A DNA stretch of 44,509 nucleotides, taken from the sequence record PZ049723.1; one strand, written 5' to 3'. This document shows positions 1 to 44,509 of the stretch, in pieces; within the stretch, counting starts at the first letter, position 1; the number at the start of each line of letters is the position of its first letter. The position numbers were made by a program, and so were the translations under genes. Under the pieces are notes generated by a model. That model made no database searches. It was given only the letters and a program-made list of their open reading frames with translations, and was not told where the DNA came from. Source of the stretch: a phage.

Positions 1-14
1 CAGGAGATGATACC

Positions 15-233
15 ATGAAAACTTTAATTATGATTTGTGCGGTTCTTTTGTCCGGTTGTGCCGACATGCCGTCTAAAATCTGCGACGCAACATACATGAA
101 TAGCGGCATTGATTATGCGGTCCCTGTGTATGGTGTCGCAGACTTCTCCGGGCATAAAATGCTAAGGGCGGGTTATCCGTTTAGCTTCCAGTACGTGTCG
201 GTAGACCATTTCAAAAACACCACCTGCGAATAA
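15..233 (+). CDS. Putative secreted lipoprotein; candidate receptor-blocking superinfection-exclusion protein (Cor/Llp-like by position)
   Basis: ATG at 15 with AGGAGA RBS 7 nt upstream; N-terminal signal peptide with lipobox LLSGC; 72 aa; next to the tail-tip genes but on the opposite strand; hairpin terminator follows. Confidence 0.5.
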   Translation: MKTLIMICAVLLSGCADMPSKICDATYMNSGIDYAVPVYGVADFSGHKMLRAGYPFSFQYVSVDHFKNTTCE

Positions 234-253
234 TCCCCGAAAGGGGATTTTCC
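234..253. terminator. Hairpin terminator between convergent genes
   Basis: tcccc-gaaa-gggga stem-loop followed by TTTT on plus strand; lies between plus gene end (233) and minus gene end (254). Confidence 0.5.
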
Positions 254-928
254 TCAGTCGTAGTTGGCAGTGTTAATCGCCATGATTGCGTTGCCGTTAT
301 TCGTATACCCCACCACATCCCCCGTGGCGTTCCCTGACGACGCTGCCGATATACGCGTTCGCGACCCATCAAATCTGGCCCCCGTGTACGCCGTTACCGA
401 TACTACCTGCGGCTGGCCCTGCACAAAAAACCGGATCAGCGTAGACCCCAATATGCCCGGTGCGACGGCGTAGCTGCCGTTTAGCGTCTGGTCAATGTTA
501 ATCCCCCCGTTAGCGCCAGGCGATCCGACGGTAACTAAATCGCTTAATACGCGACTCTCATTAGTAAGCACTAGCTTCCCCGTCTTATCCCAAATAGCGA
601 AGCCCCACCGCGGAAGGGTCTGTGGGAATATGGCAAAGATGTAAGCCGTCATAGTGAAGCCTTTCCCGAATGGATTGCTGGCGCTCACCTTCACCACATT
701 ACCAACGCGAGAAGACCCTACGACGGTCGGCTGGGCGGTGTGCGTAGTTTTCACAAACGCTATTGCAGGGTAGTCACCGCCCAAATTAATATCGGCAGCC
801 GCCGACTGCGCAGTGCCGTTAGCCGAAGACCCAACAACCACACGGCGGAATAGACAAAACGGCGTCGATTCTGGCGTGATAAACGGGTTGCCGTTTGGTA
901 AGTCAATCAACGCGCCGTAATTAGCCAT
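254..928 (-). CDS. Hypothetical protein downstream of J-like gene (tail-associated by position)
   Basis: 224-aa ORF, ATG at 928 overlapping stop of upstream gene; Gly/Ser/Thr/Asn-rich; no motif recognised. Confidence 0.5.
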   Translation of the reverse strand: MANYGALIDLPNGNPFITPESTPFCLFRRVVVGSSANGTAQSAAADINLGGDYPAIAFVKTTHTAQPTVVGSSRVGNVVKVSASNPFGKGFTMTAYIFAIFPQTLPRWGFAIWDKTGKLVLTNESRVLSDLVTVGSPGANGGINIDQTLNGSYAVAPGILGSTLIRFFVQGQPQVVSVTAYTGARFDGSRTRISAASSGNATGDVVGYTNNGNAIMAINTANYD

Positions 929-1230
929 TAAGCTCGCTCCACAAAAACAATAACGTCACATTCAGATGCGGAGTAAACCCCGCCACCTACCGCACTTGCC
1001 GCGGAAACCGTGATAGTGTTCCCGCTGGCGGTTATTCTGCGTCCTGGCCCGACCGCGCCTTTATCCAGTGCGACCACGTATCCGACCTTCATCCCCGCCG
1101 GTACTGGGAACGACCACGCGCCTGATTTTTGTCCTTCCGCAAGATGAATCCTTCCGATCACGCTTACCGGTTTAATGCCGTAGTTGTTTGGGCGTCCTTG
1201 CGCGTCCCACGTTGCGATACCGAATGCCAT
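928..1230 (-). CDS. Hypothetical protein (tail-associated by position)
   Basis: 100-aa ORF, ATG at 1230 with GAGG RBS; follows J-like gene after a hairpin. Confidence 0.5.
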   Translation of the reverse strand: MAFGIATWDAQGRPNNYGIKPVSVIGRIHLAEGQKSGAWSFPVPAGMKVGYVVALDKGAVGPGRRITASGNTITVSAASAVGGGVYSASECDVIVFVERA

Positions 1231-1242
1231 AAATAACCTCGT

Positions 1243-1263
1243 TAAAAAGGGGCCAAAGCCCCT
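1243..1263 (-). terminator. Rho-independent terminator-like hairpin after J-like gene
   Basis: aggggc-caaa-gcccct stem; on minus strand followed by TTTTTAAC. Confidence 0.45.
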
Positions 1264-1266
1264 ATA

Positions 1267-4200
1267 CTACCAGCGACCAGTAAGCTCGCCAATTTGCACG
1301 CGTAAAACACCGTTCGCGTCTTTAACGCTGTAGTTGGTGTTGGTCTGCTTTGTACCACCACCGCTTCCAGTACCCAGGTTGATAAACGTCCCGTCTTTGC
1401 CTAAGCGCCATCCGCGCGTGCTGCCGTCGAAGTTATTCGATTGCAGCGTGTCTGTGATCTGCGCGAAGTTGATGGACGCGTTCTTGATGCGCGCCGTGTC
1501 AATATACACCTGCCCTCCGTCAACGATAAACGCGGACGAAAGCGACCCATTAGATGGGTGCATGATGTAGAACTGGTCGGCTTTGAATGCGATACGAGAT
1601 TTAACCGCGCTGCCAGACGTCACAACGGAAAGCTGCATACCGGCGTCATAGTAAGTCCCGTTATACGTCACGCCAGCCTTAAGGCTGTAAGTGGCGCTAC
1701 CTCCAGAGTGGTTAAACGAAGACGTCATCTTCTGCTCGATAGCCGCGGACTGCTGACCAAACTGCGCCGCGACCTGGGTCTTATACTCCGCCAGCGCGCC
1801 CGCTACGTCTGCCGTTGCCGTTTGTACCTGCTGGATAGCGGCTTCCTGTTCCGAAAACTTAGCGGCAACAGTTTGCTGGTACTGGGCGAACGCTTGTTCC
1901 TGCGTACTCTGCGCTGTCTGCAACGTGTGGATTGCCGCTTCAGCATCGTCAAGGCGAGTACCGATCAACGTTTCCAGTTGCGCTACCGCCTGGTGGGCCT
2001 CTGCCGCCACGTTATACGCGACCGAGATTTCTGCATAAATCCCCTTGTACTCGGCACGGGCGTTAAACAACTGCTGCGCGTCGGTGAGCATAGCCTCATA
2101 AATGCCTTGCGGCATGGTGTCGATCGCTTCCTGGAAGCGTTTACCATCTTCGGAAGTCAGGAACTCGTCATCAAGCCCCTTCATATACTCGTCAACATTG
2201 TCACTCACCTGCCCTTCAAACGGGGCAGACCAGTCCGATAGGTTGCCGATTTTATCCGCTACACGGGCGCGTAACTGCTGATAGATGCCGAACTCCAGCG
2301 ACGTTTGCGCATACTCCGACCCAGGATATGGGACGTTGGTTAAGAACTTCCATTCCGTTTCACCGGTCTTGCGCACTTCAAGCTCGGTGTACGAAATATC
2401 CGTCGCGGCGTTGTTGTGGTTCCACTTCCACAAAATCTGGTGAAGGCCCGAAATCGCGTTAGTGATGATAGGCGCGTTAAGCCCACCGAGACGACCTTCT
2501 ATCGGCGTGATGGCAGACGACACCCACGGGGATGAAATCTCGCCCATACCGATTGCGCGGACGCGTGCCTGGTAGTTACCGGAGAACACGTTAGGGATGT
2601 GCGCGCCGTTCGATGCCGTGCGGGGGATGTTCACCCAGTCGTTACCCCACTGGATTTCCATATTCTGCAAGCTGGTACGTCGCCACTGGATTTCATACAC
2701 CACGGCATCCTTCACCGGAGGGAATACAATATCCACGTTGGTGATTAGCTGGCCTTGCGATGAGATCTGCGACGGGGTGATGGTAACGGATTCCGGCCCC
2801 TTCATTACACCGTCTGGCACTTGCGTAAAGATGCCTGGGTCTAGGCGCGCGCCATTATCAACGGCATCATATTTGCTATCGTTGTATTCAATCCCGCGCA
2901 CCGAAAAAGTGCTGGTAGAGTCGTCATACTCCAGGTCGGTGATGCGGAATTTCTGCAACTGGATATCATCGCCATCAACGCAAAATGGTTGATCTGGAAT
3001 CGGGTCTGCATCCAGCGCGGTTTTTAGCGTAACCTTGTTGCCGTTGACGCTGGCGATCTCGCGAGTCTCCACATTACCGCTATCGGTGCGTACCAGGAAT
3101 TTATCACCGGGGCGGAACGTGATTTCGCTGTCTGTGTTCAGCACAGTCCGCGTGCCTGGATCTGACAACAGGCGACCGCCGCGGATCTCGAATCCGCCAG
3201 AAATATTAGTATCTGCGATCGCGACTACGCTACCGGGAATAAAGAATAACCCCTCCATGCCAACCTTAAAGCTAACTTGCTGGTCAAGCTGGTTGGAGAT
3301 TAGCGCCCAGTGCCCCCGGCGTTGCGCTTCTGATTCACGTGTACAGCCGATCGCCGTAATATCCAGACGGTTAATCTTATGGCGGCGTACCAGTTCGACA
3401 CGCTGCCCCGTAGCAATGGCATCTTCATAGTGGTTCTTCGGGTTGCCGTATGCTACCGCGAAAGTGGAGTACCGCGTTTTCTGGCTGCCAGATGCGTAGT
3501 CGAATCGACCATCAATAACCGAGGCGTTGGTGATAGTGTGCGACACTGCTGCGACAGGTTGGTCACTGACGATATTCAACATCTGGTTTCCCCACCAGGT
3601 CATCCCGGCGAAGATGGCAGCTAAATCCTTAAGCACGGTCCAGGCGTCTGTCTGCGACTGGATGTACATATCATTCTTAAATCTGATTTCCCGTCCGCCG
3701 TTGCCGTCGCTGACCAACTGATCGCAGCGCTGCGCGATCTGGTAGAGCGCGTACCGGTTCAGCATTTGCGGTTTGATCCGGCGACCGAGGCCGAAGCGCT
3801 CAGTAATACAAATATCGTACCAGTGCCACGCAGGGTTATCAGTCCATGCGCGTTTAAACGTGCCGTCCCAGTCCCCGGAATAGGTATGATTAATCGGGTC
3901 ATAGTTGTTCGGCACCAGCACTTTACGCCCTTTGCACTTGATGGACACGCGCGGGATGTTCTGGAACGCTTTGGCGTCGAACTCCACGAACAACAGCGCG
4001 GTTAGCGGGTATCGCAGGCGGGCGTCGATAATCTCAGTGATGGATTGCACCCGGATATCATTAACCACTTTCGCCGATGTGGAGTCTGCCGTTATGCGGT
4101 GCACCTCCACGCGCCAGCCGGTGTTAACGTTCGGCGGTAGCTCGATGCGGTGATCGCGCTCGTATAGCGACATTGTTTTACCAACGGCAGCGAAGGTAAA

Positions 4201-4686
4201 CTCACGCGGGTCGGCGTTATCCGTATACACAACGATCTTATAGTCGATGCGCCCGCCCACCAGGTCGCCATTATCTTCGCTAGTGTACAGGGCCGGAATG
4301 CCGATTCGAATGCGCACGGCGTCAAGACTGGTGTCATTAATCTGGCGCACCCACGGCGTGCCGTTTTCCAGTTTTACGCCGACTGACTGCTCACTTTCCA
4401 CCGCTGAAAATCCGTGGATCACATCCTGGTGCTGTGTGCCGGGGCGGAACTCCACGCGCGCGCCGGGGAAGTTTTCCGACAGGTCGGCGTTCTGGATCGG
4501 TGTTCCGTCCAGATATACGCGCTGCCGTAATTCGCTGGCGCTGGTAATACTTTCGAATTCACCTTCCCCCAGCGCAAGCAAGATGCGGATTTTAGCCAGG
4601 GAATGCAGGCTATCCGGCGTTTCCTGCGGGGTGTGCTGTTTGCCGCCGCCGCCTTTATGGCCCGTGACGTCGTAGATAATCGTCAT
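1267..4686 (-). CDS. Tail tip / host specificity protein (lambda J-like central tail fibre)
   Basis: 1139-aa ORF, ATG at 4686 overlapping (ATGA) the upstream gene; size and position after I/K/L-like genes are typical of J; fibronectin-like middle region. Confidence 0.85.
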   Translation of the reverse strand: MTIIYDVTGHKGGGGKQHTPQETPDSLHSLAKIRILLALGEGEFESITSASELRQRVYLDGTPIQNADLSENFPGARVEFRPGTQHQDVIHGFSAVESEQSVGVKLENGTPWVRQINDTSLDAVRIRIGIPALYTSEDNGDLVGGRIDYKIVVYTDNADPREFTFAAVGKTMSLYERDHRIELPPNVNTGWRVEVHRITADSTSAKVVNDIRVQSITEIIDARLRYPLTALLFVEFDAKAFQNIPRVSIKCKGRKVLVPNNYDPINHTYSGDWDGTFKRAWTDNPAWHWYDICITERFGLGRRIKPQMLNRYALYQIAQRCDQLVSDGNGGREIRFKNDMYIQSQTDAWTVLKDLAAIFAGMTWWGNQMLNIVSDQPVAAVSHTITNASVIDGRFDYASGSQKTRYSTFAVAYGNPKNHYEDAIATGQRVELVRRHKINRLDITAIGCTRESEAQRRGHWALISNQLDQQVSFKVGMEGLFFIPGSVVAIADTNISGGFEIRGGRLLSDPGTRTVLNTDSEITFRPGDKFLVRTDSGNVETREIASVNGNKVTLKTALDADPIPDQPFCVDGDDIQLQKFRITDLEYDDSTSTFSVRGIEYNDSKYDAVDNGARLDPGIFTQVPDGVMKGPESVTITPSQISSQGQLITNVDIVFPPVKDAVVYEIQWRRTSLQNMEIQWGNDWVNIPRTASNGAHIPNVFSGNYQARVRAIGMGEISSPWVSSAITPIEGRLGGLNAPIITNAISGLHQILWKWNHNNAATDISYTELEVRKTGETEWKFLTNVPYPGSEYAQTSLEFGIYQQLRARVADKIGNLSDWSAPFEGQVSDNVDEYMKGLDDEFLTSEDGKRFQEAIDTMPQGIYEAMLTDAQQLFNARAEYKGIYAEISVAYNVAAEAHQAVAQLETLIGTRLDDAEAAIHTLQTAQSTQEQAFAQYQQTVAAKFSEQEAAIQQVQTATADVAGALAEYKTQVAAQFGQQSAAIEQKMTSSFNHSGGSATYSLKAGVTYNGTYYDAGMQLSVVTSGSAVKSRIAFKADQFYIMHPSNGSLSSAFIVDGGQVYIDTARIKNASINFAQITDTLQSNNFDGSTRGWRLGKDGTFINLGTGSGGGTKQTNTNYSVKDANGVLRVQIGELTGRW

Positions 4687-5300
4687 TCGTTCAAGTCCTC
4701 GGTTACGATTCCGGCAGAAATAATAGCGCCGCCGATCTCACGCTCGCCCCATAATACACCAAGTGCCGTGCCTTGCGCGGTCGTGTTCACAGGCCCGCCG
4801 AACGCGTACGACGCCTTGTTATCAACGTCCTGCCGTGTCTGCAATCCCTTCGGTTGCGGAGACAGCAATTGCATAACGCCCCCCAGCGCCATCGACATCC
4901 CGAACGAAAACGTCGCTGCGCCGATAGAGGCCGCGGTTGCCGCTGAAGCTCCAAAAGCGGCAGTCGCAAGCCCGCCGGTATAGAACGACGCCACCACGAT
5001 TGCTACACCCGCCAGCAATTGGCCCAGTCCGCTTTTTGCACCAGTCATAACCGGCGCGATGGTCACTACGCGATTGCCGTGGAACTCGCCTAGCTCATCG
5101 TAGCCGGTCAGAGTGTGATTGCCCTTGCGCACTTTGAACATCATGTTGTCCAGGTGGGCCGACATTAGAAAGTCCTGTAAGCCGGGTAACTTCACGCACA
5201 GGCCGGTGATACCCTCGCCCGGTGTGAAGCAGTCCAGCTTATGCACTTTACCAAAACGACGTCCTAAGACGCCGTACAATTTAAATGTGGTCATTGCCAT
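4683..5300 (-). CDS. Tail assembly protein I-like
   Basis: 205 aa; C-terminal Gly/Ala-rich hydrophobic segment; position between K-like and J-like genes. Confidence 0.65.
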   Translation of the reverse strand: MAMTTFKLYGVLGRRFGKVHKLDCFTPGEGITGLCVKLPGLQDFLMSAHLDNMMFKVRKGNHTLTGYDELGEFHGNRVVTIAPVMTGAKSGLGQLLAGVAIVVASFYTGGLATAAFGASAATAASIGAATFSFGMSMALGGVMQLLSPQPKGLQTRQDVDNKASYAFGGPVNTTAQGTALGVLWGEREIGGAIISAGIVTEDLNE

Positions 5301-16864: not shown

Positions 16865-16893
16865 AGGGGCCATTACGGCCCCTTAATTATTTG
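16865..16893. terminator. Bidirectional hairpin terminator
   Basis: aggggcc-attac-ggcccct stem flanked by AAAAA upstream and TAATTATTTG downstream; between convergent gene ends. Confidence 0.55.
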
Positions 16894-17103
16894 CTGCAAC
16901 TCCAGCACCTGCGCCCTTAGCTTCGCCCCGCATTCCATATTTTTAACATCAATCATCAAATCTTCGTCGGGGTCCGCGGACGGGTTATCGAACTTGCACG
17001 GCGGTCGCAGTGCCGACTCCGTTAGCGGCATCAACGGCACGCTGCTTGATCCGCACGCGCTCAGCGTCAAAACTACAATCAGGGCGGTTAGGGCGCGTAA
17101 CAT
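16873..17103 (-). CDS. Outer-membrane spanin-like lipoprotein (o-spanin candidate)
   Basis: 76 aa; signal peptide with lipobox LTLSAC; Pro-rich; overlaps the 3' end of the preceding membrane-protein gene in another frame. Confidence 0.5.
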   Translation of the reverse strand: MLRALTALIVVLTLSACGSSSVPLMPLTESALRPPCKFDNPSADPDEDLMIDVKNMECGAKLRAQVLELQQIIKGP

Positions 17104-17314
17104 ATTTTACAACCTCTTTTGTGATAGTCCGGTATTCCACGTCGCGGGCTTGTTCTGCCTGCACGGAGCGCTCAATTACTTTAGTTTGCTGCCGTTGGGC
17201 TTGGGATTGCGCTTCTTGCGCCGCCTTCGCCACTACGCCAGCGCGGTAGGAGTCACCTAGCCAGAATCCTACCGCCAGACCTATAACCAGTCCAATAGCC
17301 GCATACTTAATCAC
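16985..17314 (-). CDS. Inner-membrane spanin-like protein (i-spanin candidate)
   Basis: 109 aa; N-terminal transmembrane helix then Gln/Ala/Glu-rich helical region; GTG start at 17314 with GGGGG RBS; overlapped by the lipoprotein gene. Confidence 0.45.
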   Translation of the reverse strand: MIKYAAIGLVIGLAVGFWLGDSYRAGVVAKAAQEAQSQAQRQQTKVIERSVQAEQARDVEYRTITKEVVKYVTRPNRPDCSFDAERVRIKQRAVDAANGVGTATAVQVR

Positions 17315-23803: not shown

Positions 23804-24295
23804 TTATGCTGCGTTACGTCCGATCTTCTCGGCAACGTCCCACTGCTTCCCATCAAACAACGCCTGTCTGCCGATTGCTCGACGGACAAGTCCCTTCAGC
23901 ACTTCCCCGCCTTGCTTGCGGAACTGTGGCAGCGTAGCACGGACCTTCGCCCAGTCACCCAGGCGCACCGCATCATCGAAATCACCGGCTACGTCGTCCG
24001 GCATGATCGGACCAGGACCGGCATTGATTACCAGGTCCACCAGCGCGTCGAATTGCGCCTGATTGATGCTCGGGTGTGCGTACTTGTTCACCCAGTTCTC
24101 GGCATATGCCACATCGCGCTTGAGTAGCTCCAGTGCTTCCGCACGGGTAATGCTCCGCGGCGGGTTAGTGCCGGTGTGACCATAGCCCCAGGTATACAGG
24201 CCGCGGGCCTGCTCTTTCTTAGTCGCGAAATACGGCACTGGGCTGAACGCCTCCCATGCTGCCGTAAATCGTAGACCGTTGTCACTGAATCGCAT
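23804..24295 (-). CDS. Endolysin, GH24 (T4 lysozyme-like) family
   Basis: 163 aa; N-terminal catalytic pattern E..F....Y then TWGYGHTG; follows two membrane-protein genes. Confidence 0.8.
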   Translation of the reverse strand: MRFSDNGLRFTAAWEAFSPVPYFATKKEQARGLYTWGYGHTGTNPPRSITRAEALELLKRDVAYAENWVNKYAHPSINQAQFDALVDLVINAGPGPIMPDDVAGDFDDAVRLGDWAKVRATLPQFRKQGGEVLKGLVRRAIGRQALFDGKQWDVAEKIGRNAA

Positions 24296-24527
24296 GTTTT
24301 ACCCCATTCAAAACAGCATTACGCAGTGTGCGCAATGCAAACAGCCATATTAACGCGGTCCAGGTGGTATCAGATACGTCTCCGGTTTGCAACAATCCGA
24401 TAAAACAGACCATTGCCGTTAACAGATACAGCACCCGACCGAAAAAGCCATCCCGGACGGACGGCGCATACACGTTAAACAGGGACGAAGCCCCGATGAT
24501 AACAAACAACAGGACGGAGATAATCAT
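24282..24527 (-). CDS. Holin/antiholin-like small membrane protein
   Basis: 81 aa with two or three hydrophobic helices and charged C-terminus; GGGGGG RBS; overlaps endolysin start. Confidence 0.5.
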   Translation of the reverse strand: MIISVLLFVIIGASSLFNVYAPSVRDGFFGRVLYLLTAMVCFIGLLQTGDVSDTTWTALIWLFALRTLRNAVLNGVKHAIQ

Positions 24528-24814
24528 TTTGCACCCCCCGGAAGTCGGAACGACGCAATAGTCTCCCTGATCCGGTCGGCGATTGGCATCCAGAAGATGG
24601 CAGTTACGAAGCCCAAACCGGCGACAGTGCGCTCACCCGACAAACCAGCCCACTCAGCGATAGCCGGTGCGCCAAATATGGCACACAGGAAGCCAACTAC
24701 AACATACAAAACGAAGTTTAGCGGCCCCTTCGTAGCCTCACCATGAATGCGTGCGCCTACGAAGCCACCCGCCAGACATGCCAGGGCGAATAGCCACTCG
24801 TTTAGCTTATCCAT
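24524..24814 (-). CDS. Holin-like membrane protein
   Basis: 96 aa with three predicted transmembrane segments; first gene of lysis cassette. Confidence 0.55.
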   Translation of the reverse strand: MDKLNEWLFALACLAGGFVGARIHGEATKGPLNFVLYVVVGFLCAIFGAPAIAEWAGLSGERTVAGLGFVTAIFWMPIADRIRETIASFRLPGGAK

Positions 24815-39788: not shown

Positions 39789-40031
39789 ATGAAATCATTA
39801 TTTTTCGACTACGACGGCGACCTTCGATTTTGGGTGCTTCTCACCCTCATGATTGCCGGTTGTATTGGCATACCTTCGACGGCTATTTACTACACGGAAC
39901 GCTACGAATGCAAGACCGTGTATGCCGAGCAAACCGGACGCAATACCCAATGGCGATATGGTGTCTGCTGGGTTGAAATGGATGGCAAATTTATTCCTCG
40001 CGATGAGATTCGCACAACGGAGCTTAAATAG
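39789..40031 (+). CDS. Small membrane protein / possible lipoprotein
   Basis: 80 aa; hydrophobic helix WVLLTLMIAGCIGIP with Cys in lipobox-like context; GGAG RBS. Confidence 0.45.
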   Translation: MKSLFFDYDGDLRFWVLLTLMIAGCIGIPSTAIYYTERYECKTVYAEQTGRNTQWRYGVCWVEMDGKFIPRDEIRTTELK

Positions 40032-40496
40032 ATGAAAATTTTACAAGAAGAGAAAAATTACTGGGCCGCGCAATGCCTTGAAGCCCGCGAACAGGCCGAA
40101 CGTGCGAACGCGTTGGCGGACACCAACCAGGCGCTATATGAAGGAGAGAAGAAAGTGCGCCAGGAGCTAGCGGAGCGCTTCGGACTGCTATTCGAATTGA
40201 TGGGGATTATGCAGCGCACCGGATACACCACCAGCGTTGCACTAAACCGCATCACTGCCGATGGTTTGCGTGAACATTGTAAACGTGCTGAGGAGTACGT
40301 GCGACCGAAGGGTCGCACGTCTAAGGTTGACCGTAAAGATTTGGTGCTTATGGCGTGGCGCAACCCTACAAATGGCAGCTTCTACCCGGACGCGCGCCCG
40401 CTTAGTGCCGAGGAATCAAAGCGCGTGCAACGCATTATCAAAACCGGCAATAAAATCGCCCTGTATGCGATAGATCCAGATCATGCAGAAGAGTGA
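40032..40496 (+). CDS. Hypothetical protein
   Basis: 154 aa; N-terminal coiled-coil-like region; no motif recognised. Confidence 0.45.
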   Translation: MKILQEEKNYWAAQCLEAREQAERANALADTNQALYEGEKKVRQELAERFGLLFELMGIMQRTGYTTSVALNRITADGLREHCKRAEEYVRPKGRTSKVDRKDLVLMAWRNPTNGSFYPDARPLSAEESKRVQRIIKTGNKIALYAIDPDHAEE

Positions 40497-42871: not shown

Positions 42872-44443
42872 TTATTTCTCCGCCAACTTACTTTCTAAGG
42901 CCTCAATCTTCGCCGCCAAATGCTGAACAGTCGCGACAAGGTCAAGTAGCAGGACGTTTTCGTCTAATGCCAGAAACTCTTTACCAGTTGCGTCGGCGTA
43001 CTTGCGAACATACTGCGGGTCGATCTCTTCCAACTGCTGCGCGATAAAACCACGTCTGACCGTTTCCTTTTTGTCGTAATTATAAACAAAGGAAGAGTAT
43101 TCCATAGCCATGACGTTAGTGTATGCAACTTGAGTATCGATCCGGGCGATATCATGCTTCAGCGCCCTGTCGGATACCGGGGATTTTGAGAAAATATAGT
43201 TAACCGACCCAGTGTTGTTGCCGAAGGTAATATCGTATGACTCGGCGTTAAAGAAAGTATTCCGAATGATATCGCCGTTAGGCTGTATTCCTGACGCCAT
43301 ATCATAGTCATAGACCTGCGAAATCATAGCGTTAGGGTGTGACGACACCGATGTGGGGTGGATCAACGCCCCGAACGAAATAAAGTTACGCCACCCGCCA
43401 CCAGTCGCACCAGTGCCGCCGCCGACAAAACCTACGTGACCCGAGTATTGACCGTTATTCCATGTATTCGCGAGGGTGACGTAGGTATTACCAGGCGACG
43501 CCCCGGTGGACGCTGGATTCAATCCTTTGTTAAAGATGATCTTGCCATCATATTTAAAGTCCCACGACGGCGAGGTGCTTGGATCGAGGGCGTTAACGGT
43601 TGCCAAACGGGTCCAGATGTCTACGTTATTACGCCCCTGAATCTGAAGCGATGTTCTGTATTTTTCGCCCCCGGCAACGAACACAGATGAGTCAAATCGA
43701 CCGCCGTATACTTCTGTGCCATTCGCCGGATCTGAAGCGTAATTATTGCGTAAACCCCATAGTCCCACGTCATCAAGACCGCGCCACACCCACCCTTTAG
43801 TCGCAGAGTCAAGAGGGTCGACTGGGTCCGCGCCTACGCGAAGCGGTCCTGACGGCATAAGGTTAGCCCACGACGCACTTTTGTCCGCAAGCCCGGCGAG
43901 GTTGCCGGATTTGGTTAGCAGATTGTCTGGGTTTACGCTTTGCGCCCATTCTTCGGCCTCATTGCGAAATCCTTGCGCTGCTGCTTCTGATGCCGCGGCT
44001 TGTTGTTGCAGGTTGCGCATTTCAACGGGGTCAACTTCCTTCAGCAATTGCGAAAGATAGCCCCACGACATACCCTGCATAACTTGCCCGTTCGGCAGCG
44101 TTACCGTGATTTCCTCAGCGTCACCGAAGATTGCACGCCAGTTGTTTTCGTCCGCGATCATCAAGCGCAATGCTTTCTGTGCCTGGACTGTTACGCCCAT
44201 CGTCGCCAGTGACATGGTATCGCGCGCAACGCCATCCCAGGCAAGGCCGGTTGCCGTGGGGCCGTCGAACGGCAGCACCAGCGTAAGCGCGGTGTCGCTT
44301 TCGACGGACGCGATAGCAACAGTGTAAGGGACTTGCCCCACCACCAGCGTTAAGAAGTCGCCAGCTTTAAACGCGGTGAACGTCGTGCCTACCCCGACAA
44401 CCGCCTTGCTGTTATTCGTTACGGATAGTGTACCCGCTGCCAT
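42872..44443 (-). CDS. Tail fibre protein with C-terminal intramolecular chaperone (peptidase S74-type) domain
   Basis: ATG at 44443 with GAGGA RBS (an upstream in-frame ATG at 44470 lies inside a TTGGTTGCA motif); C-terminal RGFIAQQLEEIDPQYV ... LAAKIEALESKLAEK matches the chaperone-domain signature. Confidence 0.7.
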   Translation of the reverse strand: MAAGTLSVTNNSKAVVGVGTTFTAFKAGDFLTLVVGQVPYTVAIASVESDTALTLVLPFDGPTATGLAWDGVARDTMSLATMGVTVQAQKALRLMIADENNWRAIFGDAEEITVTLPNGQVMQGMSWGYLSQLLKEVDPVEMRNLQQQAAASEAAAQGFRNEAEEWAQSVNPDNLLTKSGNLAGLADKSASWANLMPSGPLRVGADPVDPLDSATKGWVWRGLDDVGLWGLRNNYASDPANGTEVYGGRFDSSVFVAGGEKYRTSLQIQGRNNVDIWTRLATVNALDPSTSPSWDFKYDGKIIFNKGLNPASTGASPGNTYVTLANTWNNGQYSGHVGFVGGGTGATGGGWRNFISFGALIHPTSVSSHPNAMISQVYDYDMASGIQPNGDIIRNTFFNAESYDITFGNNTGSVNYIFSKSPVSDRALKHDIARIDTQVAYTNVMAMEYSSFVYNYDKKETVRRGFIAQQLEEIDPQYVRKYADATGKEFLALDENVLLLDLVATVQHLAAKIEALESKLAEK

Positions 44444-44509
44444 AGCTGAATCCTCATAAATTGGTTGCATTCTTGGTCGAGCGGTGCAATACTAAAACTC
44501 AACCAAATA

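Follow-up and report, generated by a model that had tools for sequence, protein, structure and literature searches.

The gene studied here, cor, lies close to the start of a stretch of 44,509 nucleotides (sequence record PZ049723.1), the whole of which is referred to below as the window. Positions 1..5000 of the window are 93-94% identical to many coliphages of the genus Dhillonvirus (HK578/SO-1-like). When the end and the start of the window were rejoined, an 800-bp stretch was colinear with phage Envy, with 90% identity and one gap. The window thus holds one whole genome of about 44.5 kb in circularly permuted form, and the sequence preceding cor is to be found at the end of the window. A survey of the ORFs and annotations of the genus Dhillonvirus yielded no integrase or repressor, and the phage that carries cor is virulent. 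The genes and features of the locus are listed in Table 1.

Table 1. Genes, gene segments and expression signals at the cor locus, with positions in the window
Feature	Position	Strand	Description
cor	15..233	+	72-aa precursor of the Cor superinfection-exclusion lipoprotein
gp23-like gene	254..928	-	224 aa, PHROG 425; second gene of the FhuA-type host-recognition locus, downstream of J
gp22-like gene	928..1230	-	100 aa, PHROG 557; first gene of the FhuA-type host-recognition locus
J-like tail-tip gene	1267..4686	-	
J tip, last ~45-50 codons	1267..1427	-	varies with cassette type, not with genus
Lateral tail-fibre gene	42872..44443	-	divergent from cor, on the far side of the window junction
Candidate sigma-70 promoter for cor	44465..44493	+	consensus match only
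G+C-rich hairpin between cor and the gp23-like gene	232..249	.	7-bp stem, GAAA loop

The cor gene is convergent with the tail-tip operon and divergent from the lateral tail-fibre gene. The gene order J, gp22, gp23, cor recurs in phages phi80, N15 and T1. The original prediction, made from the nucleotide sequence, had described a plus-strand gene facing tail genes that are all on the minus strand, and this is indeed the orientation of J, the gp22-like and gp23-like genes and the lateral tail-fibre gene. The G+C content of cor is 45.7%, against 54.6% for the genome, which places the gene in the bottom 3% of all 219-nt windows; the gp22-like and gp23-like genes, unlike cor, are at the genome average.

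The lateral tail-fibre protein carries at its C-terminus a Peptidase_S74 intramolecular chaperone domain. The middle of the protein (encoded at about 42880..43950) is not conserved in Envy, Oekolampad or HK578, which is consistent with a variable glycan specificity. The start of the gene is likely the ATG at 44443, which is preceded by the Shine-Dalgarno sequence GAGGA and agrees with the annotation of Envy; the start of the longest ORF, at 44470, was rejected in its favour.

The cor ORF begins with an ATG, 8 nt downstream of an AGGAG Shine-Dalgarno sequence, and encodes 72 amino acids with the N-terminus MKTLIMICAVLLSGC, followed by ADMPSK (longer stretch: MKTLIMICAVLLSGCADMPSK). Residues 1-14 constitute the signal peptide and residues 12-15 the lipobox L-S-G-C. 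The codon for Cys15 is located at 57..59, and the mature domain, encoded at 57..230, contains the conserved residues Cys23 and Cys71 and the motif RAGYPF. A lipoprotein rule in the style of PROSITE PS51257 was passed by the N-terminus, with K2, an uncharged hydrophobic stretch, L-S-G-C and Cys15, in agreement with the signal peptide and lipobox that had been ascribed to the 72-aa product. Of the window's 375 ORFs with 40 aa or more, six passed the same rule, three of them by chance and inside other genes. The lipobox motif alone is thus weak evidence, and the reality of cor rests on homology. In the Lol system, the residue at position +2 governs the sorting of lipoproteins, with Asp as the contrast case. 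As residue +2 of Cor is Ala, not Asp, sorting to the outer membrane is expected, and Cor is predicted from its sequence to be lipidated and located in the outer membrane.

Apart from cor, the genome has one bona fide lipoprotein gene, which was absent from the original prediction. It encodes an o-spanin (16873..17103, minus strand; MLRALTALIVVLTLSAC) and overlaps the gene of an i-spanin (16985..17314, minus strand). The spanin pair adjoins a head-morphogenesis gene and is about 7 kb away from a holin-holin-endolysin cluster (23804..24814, minus strand).

Residues 2-72 of the protein matched the NCBIfam equivalog model NF047972, "phage exclusion lipoprotein Cor", with 56.8 bits at a cutoff of 31 (E 1.7e-15), and residues 1-72 matched PHROG 1119, "Cor superinfection exclusion protein" (E 2.3e-26). 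In Pfam, no model matching the protein was found. A tblastn search with Cor against 50,697 phage records gave matches in 245 records. These included 77 Dhillonvirus-type records with 60-93% identity, many of them labelled "Cor" or "super-infection exclusion protein", the Cor proteins of T1-like phages (about 45-51% identity), cor of phi80 (40%, E 2e-9) and gene 24 of N15 (39%, E 9e-9). A word-indexed homology search returned only six close relatives, and the diverse Cor proteins were reached by exhaustive HMMER and profile searches. Residues G14 and C15 were invariant in alignments of 18 and of 83 homologues. Residues C23, C71, G53, P55 and F56 were invariant or nearly so across the aligned homologues, and all of them are present in this protein. 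The motif (R/K)AGYPF is near-invariant, being shared by this Cor, the Cor proteins of T1, phi80 and N15 and up to 82 further homologues.

Judged by the curated models, by the conserved neighbourhood and by homology to the Cor proteins of phi80, N15 and T1, the gene is a cor orthologue. The Cor family consists of phage lipoproteins that turn FhuA off, so that phages of the same receptor type cease to attach to an infected cell or to its debris. The original prediction of an exclusion lipoprotein of the Cor/Llp kind is accordingly supported by NF047972, by PHROG 1119, by the homology to Cor proteins that have been studied and by the J-gp22-gp23-cor context.

The Cor proteins of phi80, N15, HK022, mEp167 and T1 agree with the one described here in size, in the lipobox, in the two conserved cysteines and in the RAGYPF motif, but these tested proteins are only 38-47% identical to it. 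In phi80, N15 and T1, cor lies next to J, gp22 and gp23 as it does here, and the inferred target is likewise FhuA. The virulent phage T1 has cor in exactly the same inverted orientation as here, running towards the tail operon, whereas cor and the tail genes point the same way in the temperate phages phi80 and N15. In a comparison of strands (loci L004, 29623..29850; L006, 2601..2834; L002, 5501..5734; L003, 5495..5731), the exclusion lipoprotein gene and the receptor-binding genes were on opposite strands in three virulent lineages, T1, T5 and Dhillonvirus, and co-directional in two temperate phages, phi80 and N15, which is a small sample.

In sister Dhillonviruses, among them Envy, Gluttony, SSL-2009a, SECphi18, JLBYU37, JLBYU60 and SM_W22, Cor orthologues are 83-93% identical, with locus and orientation unchanged and only allelic differences. 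The best match is 93.1% identical, which corresponds to five substitutions. The gene is already known, since it is annotated in a well-sampled genus and its context and probable mechanism have been published. Because the family, the genus context and the probable Llp-like action are in the literature, cor itself raises no new question.

Cor sequences with 45-85% identity were also found in eight unannotated "Campylobacter phage" records (e.g. MG065648.1, MG065640.1 and MG065688.1), whose genomes have the size usual for Dhillonvirus or T1-like coliphages and which may be mislabelled or may represent coliphage contaminants of Campylobacter phage preparations. Three long proteins of a representative set, P0012 (968 aa), P0018 (315 aa) and P0021 (2404 aa), matched residues ~5-49 of Cor in five to eight stretches each; these matches may reflect repeated lipobox-like or hydrophobic segments, or be an artefact.

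The 80-nt intergenic region between the lateral tail-fibre gene and cor shows very few differences between this phage and Envy, HK578, Oekolampad and PTXU06. A relaxed scan of the rejoined sequence revealed a candidate promoter consisting of TTGCAT (44465-44470), a 17-nt spacer, TGc and AATACT (44488-44493), which matches 7 of 12 consensus positions, has an extended -10 TG and is conserved in the same four phages. A strict promoter scan upstream of cor called none, partly since the ends of the window split the region. At the other end of the gene, the hairpin separates the stop codons of two converging genes, cor and the gp23-like gene. Its folding gave z values of -3.1 and -3.6, and none of 200 shuffled sequences folded as well. 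The corresponding stem in Envy shows compensatory changes, and a terminator is annotated at this site in T1. The hairpin was not called in a terminator scan, its T-run being short; from its folding energy and conservation, it is probably a bidirectional terminator. With its candidate promoter (7/12 plus TG), stable hairpin and low G+C content, cor may be a moron, an autonomous unit of promoter, gene and terminator.

The gp23-like protein is 64% identical to gp23 of N15, 58% to gp23 of phi80 and 52% to gp31 of T1, and the gp22-like protein is 73%, 70% and 54% identical to gp22 of N15, gp22 of phi80 and gp32 of T1, respectively. The whole J protein is only 35-38% identical to J of T1, phi80 and N15. 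Its last 45 residues (1267..1401) are 53-62% identical to the termini of these three J proteins, against 26-34% for the preceding 300 residues. In comparison with LptD-type phages of the same genus, the last 45 residues are only 24-27% identical, whereas the preceding 300 residues are 90-94% identical. The identity patterns of the J tip, the gp22-like and gp23-like proteins and Cor indicate that these travel together as one cassette. The J tip is probably a docking piece for gp22/gp23-type proteins. PTXU06, a BtuB-type phage with distant gp22/gp23-like genes, keeps the same J tip as this phage. The gp22-like and gp23-like proteins both lack a signal peptide and any hydrophobic segment (highest Kyte-Doolittle value over 19 residues 1.2). 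Their genes are part of the late tail operon, and their conservation across phage families is much stronger than that of J or cor. Both proteins appear to be virion components for receptor binding, and their names are apparently inherited misnomers.

Positions 1..5000 of the window are 93.0-93.4% identical to JLBYU37 and JLBYU60, two phages that are experimentally FhuA-dependent (PMC10373560). In the BASEL study, the alleles of this locus matched receptor specificity "without exception", and cognate exclusion proteins were co-encoded (PMC8594841). Within the BASEL collection, cor together with both neighbouring genes is present only in FhuA-using Drexlerviridae and Dhillonvirus phages (2026, PMC13164509). 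Dhillonviruses that use LptD or BtuB have different lipoprotein and receptor-binding protein (RBP) genes in exactly the slot of cor: in HK578 and Oekolampad the slot is filled by an Rtp45-like lipoprotein and an Rtp44-like RBP (LptD), and in PTXU06, reported to be BtuB-dependent, by a different three-gene set. FhuA is most probably the terminal receptor of our phage, with Cor as the matching exclusion factor, and we hold with high confidence that cor codes for a Cor-family lipoprotein belonging to a virulent Dhillonvirus that targets FhuA. The use of FhuA together with a matching self-exclusion factor helps to predict host range and to anticipate resistance. It would also matter for the design of phage cocktails, as other FhuA-dependent phages would be kept out of cells infected by this one.

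Exclusion of FhuA-dependent phages and impairment of FhuA functions on expression of Cor are known for HK022, N15, phi80 and mEp167 (bioRxiv 10.64898/2026.03.26.714494; PMC3594210), and Cor of HK022, N15 and phi80 inactivates FhuA and lowers ferrichrome uptake (PMC3594210, citing Uc-Mass 2004). For the Llp protein of T5, the mode of action has been worked out: Llp binds the periplasmic face and the plug of FhuA, EL7/EL8 fold inward and the RBP is blocked (PMC9586334), and the disulfide Cys11-Cys58 is needed for binding to FhuA (PMC9586334; bioRxiv 10.64898/2026.03.26.714494). As is predicted for Cor, T5 Llp (PDB 8A60 chain B, 7QJF) is a small outer-membrane lipoprotein that targets FhuA, and it has an N-to-C cysteine pair at equivalent positions, Cys23 and Cys71 of Cor being mature positions 9 and 57, compared with Cys11 and Cys58 of Llp. 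The llp gene adjoins a receptor-binding gene on the opposite strand and has its own promoter. Differences also exist, as Llp lacks the RAGYPF motif and pb5, which binds the receptor in T5, is not related to gp22/gp23.

Sequence scores that seemed to show homology of Cor and Llp were considered and rejected as evidence. The profile match in hmmsearch (E 0.0016) and the hhalign match (94.5%) were both driven by the signal peptide; in a control, about 95% was likewise reached, over 29 signal-peptide columns, by a lipoprotein that is unrelated but has an identical signal peptide. The mature domains compared by themselves in hhalign gave no significant match (E 0.065, probability 0.9%), and a search of the single Cor sequence against the PDB reached Llp only at E 0.62. 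The proposed comparison with the Cor and Llp families thus had a divided outcome, positive for Cor, where the score is above the curated cutoff, and negative for the sequence of the mature Llp domain.

The modelled fold of Cor is closest to that of T5 Llp, and the two rank as the same fold. In a Foldseek search, no PDB match to the Cor model was significant, Llp having TM scores of 0.61/0.58 and generic Tudor/SH3-like barrels scoring similarly. In BFVD, the predicted structure of Cor of CEC_Kaz_2018, a sister Dhillonvirus, superposed with a TM score of 0.96, and the next neighbours were lipoproteins of T5-like phages. [quoted passage not shown] An Llp-like mode has also been concluded by others for T1-type Cor (PMC13164509; bioRxiv 10.64898/2026.03.26.714494), for which an AlphaFold3 model has been published (PMC13164509).

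According to this model, cor would be transcribed alone from the conserved 80-nt region that it has in common with the divergent lateral tail-fibre gene, and transcription would end at the hairpin in common with the convergent late tail operon. The precursor would be exported and then lipidated at Cys15. The mature protein of 57 residues would form a small beta-barrel, its ends probably tied by a Cys23-Cys71 disulfide, and would bind to the periplasmic side of FhuA, as Llp of T5 does. FhuA locked in this way could not be used by the J tip and the gp22-like and gp23-like receptor-binding proteins. Infected cells would consequently take up no further FhuA-dependent phages, and progeny would not be wasted on FhuA in debris.

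The last of these effects could be the main one. With the same molecule and the same target, the principal selected benefit may be lytic conversion, in which progeny are spared from FhuA in the debris of lysed cells, and we place this possibility somewhat below an even chance. It fits a virulent phage, the genus survey having found neither integrase nor repressor, and the same argument has been made for T5 Llp and for small siphophages (PMC12685063; PMC13164509). Furthermore, in the HK578/Oekolampad variant of the locus the same promoter also drives the gene of a structural RBP, so that it is unlikely to be exclusively early. Progeny protection and exclusion of other phages nevertheless follow from one mechanism and are compatible with each other, and the sequence gives no distinction between them.

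An indirect block, in which Cor would prevent FhuA-dependent entry via or together with other outer-membrane proteins and not by jamming the plug as Llp does, is unlikely. In work of Arguijo-Hernandez et al. from 2018, Cor is said to need other outer-membrane proteins, a requirement that is reported in the title. The molecular mechanism of Cor is stated as not solved in a recent preprint (bioRxiv 10.64898/2026.03.26.714494), and mature Cor has no significant sequence homology to Llp.

That Cor acts on another TonB-dependent transporter or another receptor instead of FhuA is very improbable. Cor-like lipoproteins occur in BtuB-targeting phages (PMC13164509), and PTXU06, for which dependence on BtuB is reported, fills the slot of cor with a lipoprotein distantly similar to Cor. 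However, the mature lipoprotein of PTXU06 is very different, with only 27 columns aligning (E 0.006), and the whole cassette of our phage is of the type found in T1, phi80, N15 and the FhuA-dependent JLBYU37 and JLBYU60. Finally, although the ORF has only 72 codons for amino acids and chance lipobox-like motifs occur in about 1% of the ORFs of the window, the idea that cor is a chance ORF or a decaying, functionless remnant can practically be dismissed, as the gene is intact, has a Shine-Dalgarno sequence, retains all family-invariant residues, is conserved at 83-93% identity in 77 records and scores above the curated equivalog cutoff.

We compared the limits of homology between cassettes of different types. 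Oekolampad and PTXU06 share about 90% homology with this phage through the intergenic region and the whole signal peptide (MKTLIMICAVLLSGC), which together with the lipobox is identical in all three phages, and 47 of the first 49 nt are identical in Oekolampad. The homology to these two phages stops at 58-63, which is 0-2 codons past the lipobox cysteine, and the break relative to HK578 is at nt 28. Homology resumes within or directly after the last ~45 codons of J, at 1428 in Oekolampad, at 1405 in HK578 and at 1247 in PTXU06. The edges of the cassette, at window positions 44444..44509 plus 1..63 and at 1247..1427, are sharp.

The LptD-directed exclusion lipoproteins Rtp45 and Oekolampad gp26 (PDB 9RPS) occupy the same slot and promoter region as cor, and the signal peptide and lipobox of gp26 are identical to those of Cor (MKTLIMICAVLLSGCA). 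They follow the same logic as Cor, being periplasmic lipoproteins that change the outer loops of a receptor, but their target is LptDE and their gene is co-transcribed with its RBP gene. Their mature domain is unrelated to that of Cor: between the mature domains of Cor and those of Rtp45, HK578 gp24 and Oekolampad gp26, BLASTP found no match and hhalign gave E values of 0.18-0.22; the match of Cor to PDB entry 9rps_D was confined to the signal peptide (E 1.9).

From the positions of the boundaries, the mature exclusion domain and the receptor-binding genes would therefore be exchanged as one unit behind a fixed socket. We give an even chance to the wider proposal that the Dhillonvirus promoter, Shine-Dalgarno sequence and signal peptide with lipobox serve as a fixed socket for FhuA-, LptD- and BtuB-type cassettes, so that a single recombination event swaps the RBPs and the matching exclusion domain. 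If this is true, receptor specificity and self-exclusion always switch together, and the sequence encoding the signal peptide is a recombination anchor that could be reused to engineer receptor swaps. The sharing of the socket, with divergence right after the lipobox cysteine, may be the one detail that is new. Its added value is modest and consists in mapping the exchangeable cassette exactly to the boundary between signal peptide and mature domain.

A second small protein with a lipobox had been pointed out at 39789..40031 (plus strand). The ORF encodes 80 amino acids, and I-A-G-C is indeed present at Cys25, but the lipobox is not conserved and the product is likely not a lipoprotein: most homologues have V or F at position -1 (AVC, FFC), and Cys25 lies midway in a hydrophobic stretch of about 21 residues, which is preceded by an acidic N-terminus. 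Because the lipobox is not conserved, the product is probably a membrane protein, more likely a single-pass one with a periplasmic domain that contains the conserved residues Cys41 and Cys60. Its family is found in Dhillonviruses only, in 79 records that are all labelled "hypothetical", and no match to any family of known function was obtained. It is present in FhuA-type and LptD-type phages alike and absent from HK578. On account of the non-conserved lipobox, the occurrence in both phage types, the absence from HK578 and the lack of a family of known function, the protein was rejected as a second exclusion lipoprotein.

This ORF directly abuts a 154-aa ORF at 40032..40496 (plus strand), which bears the PHROGs label "DNA ligase", without support from Pfam. 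HK578 has no annotated counterpart of either ORF at that position, and the two ORFs may thus form an accessory insert.
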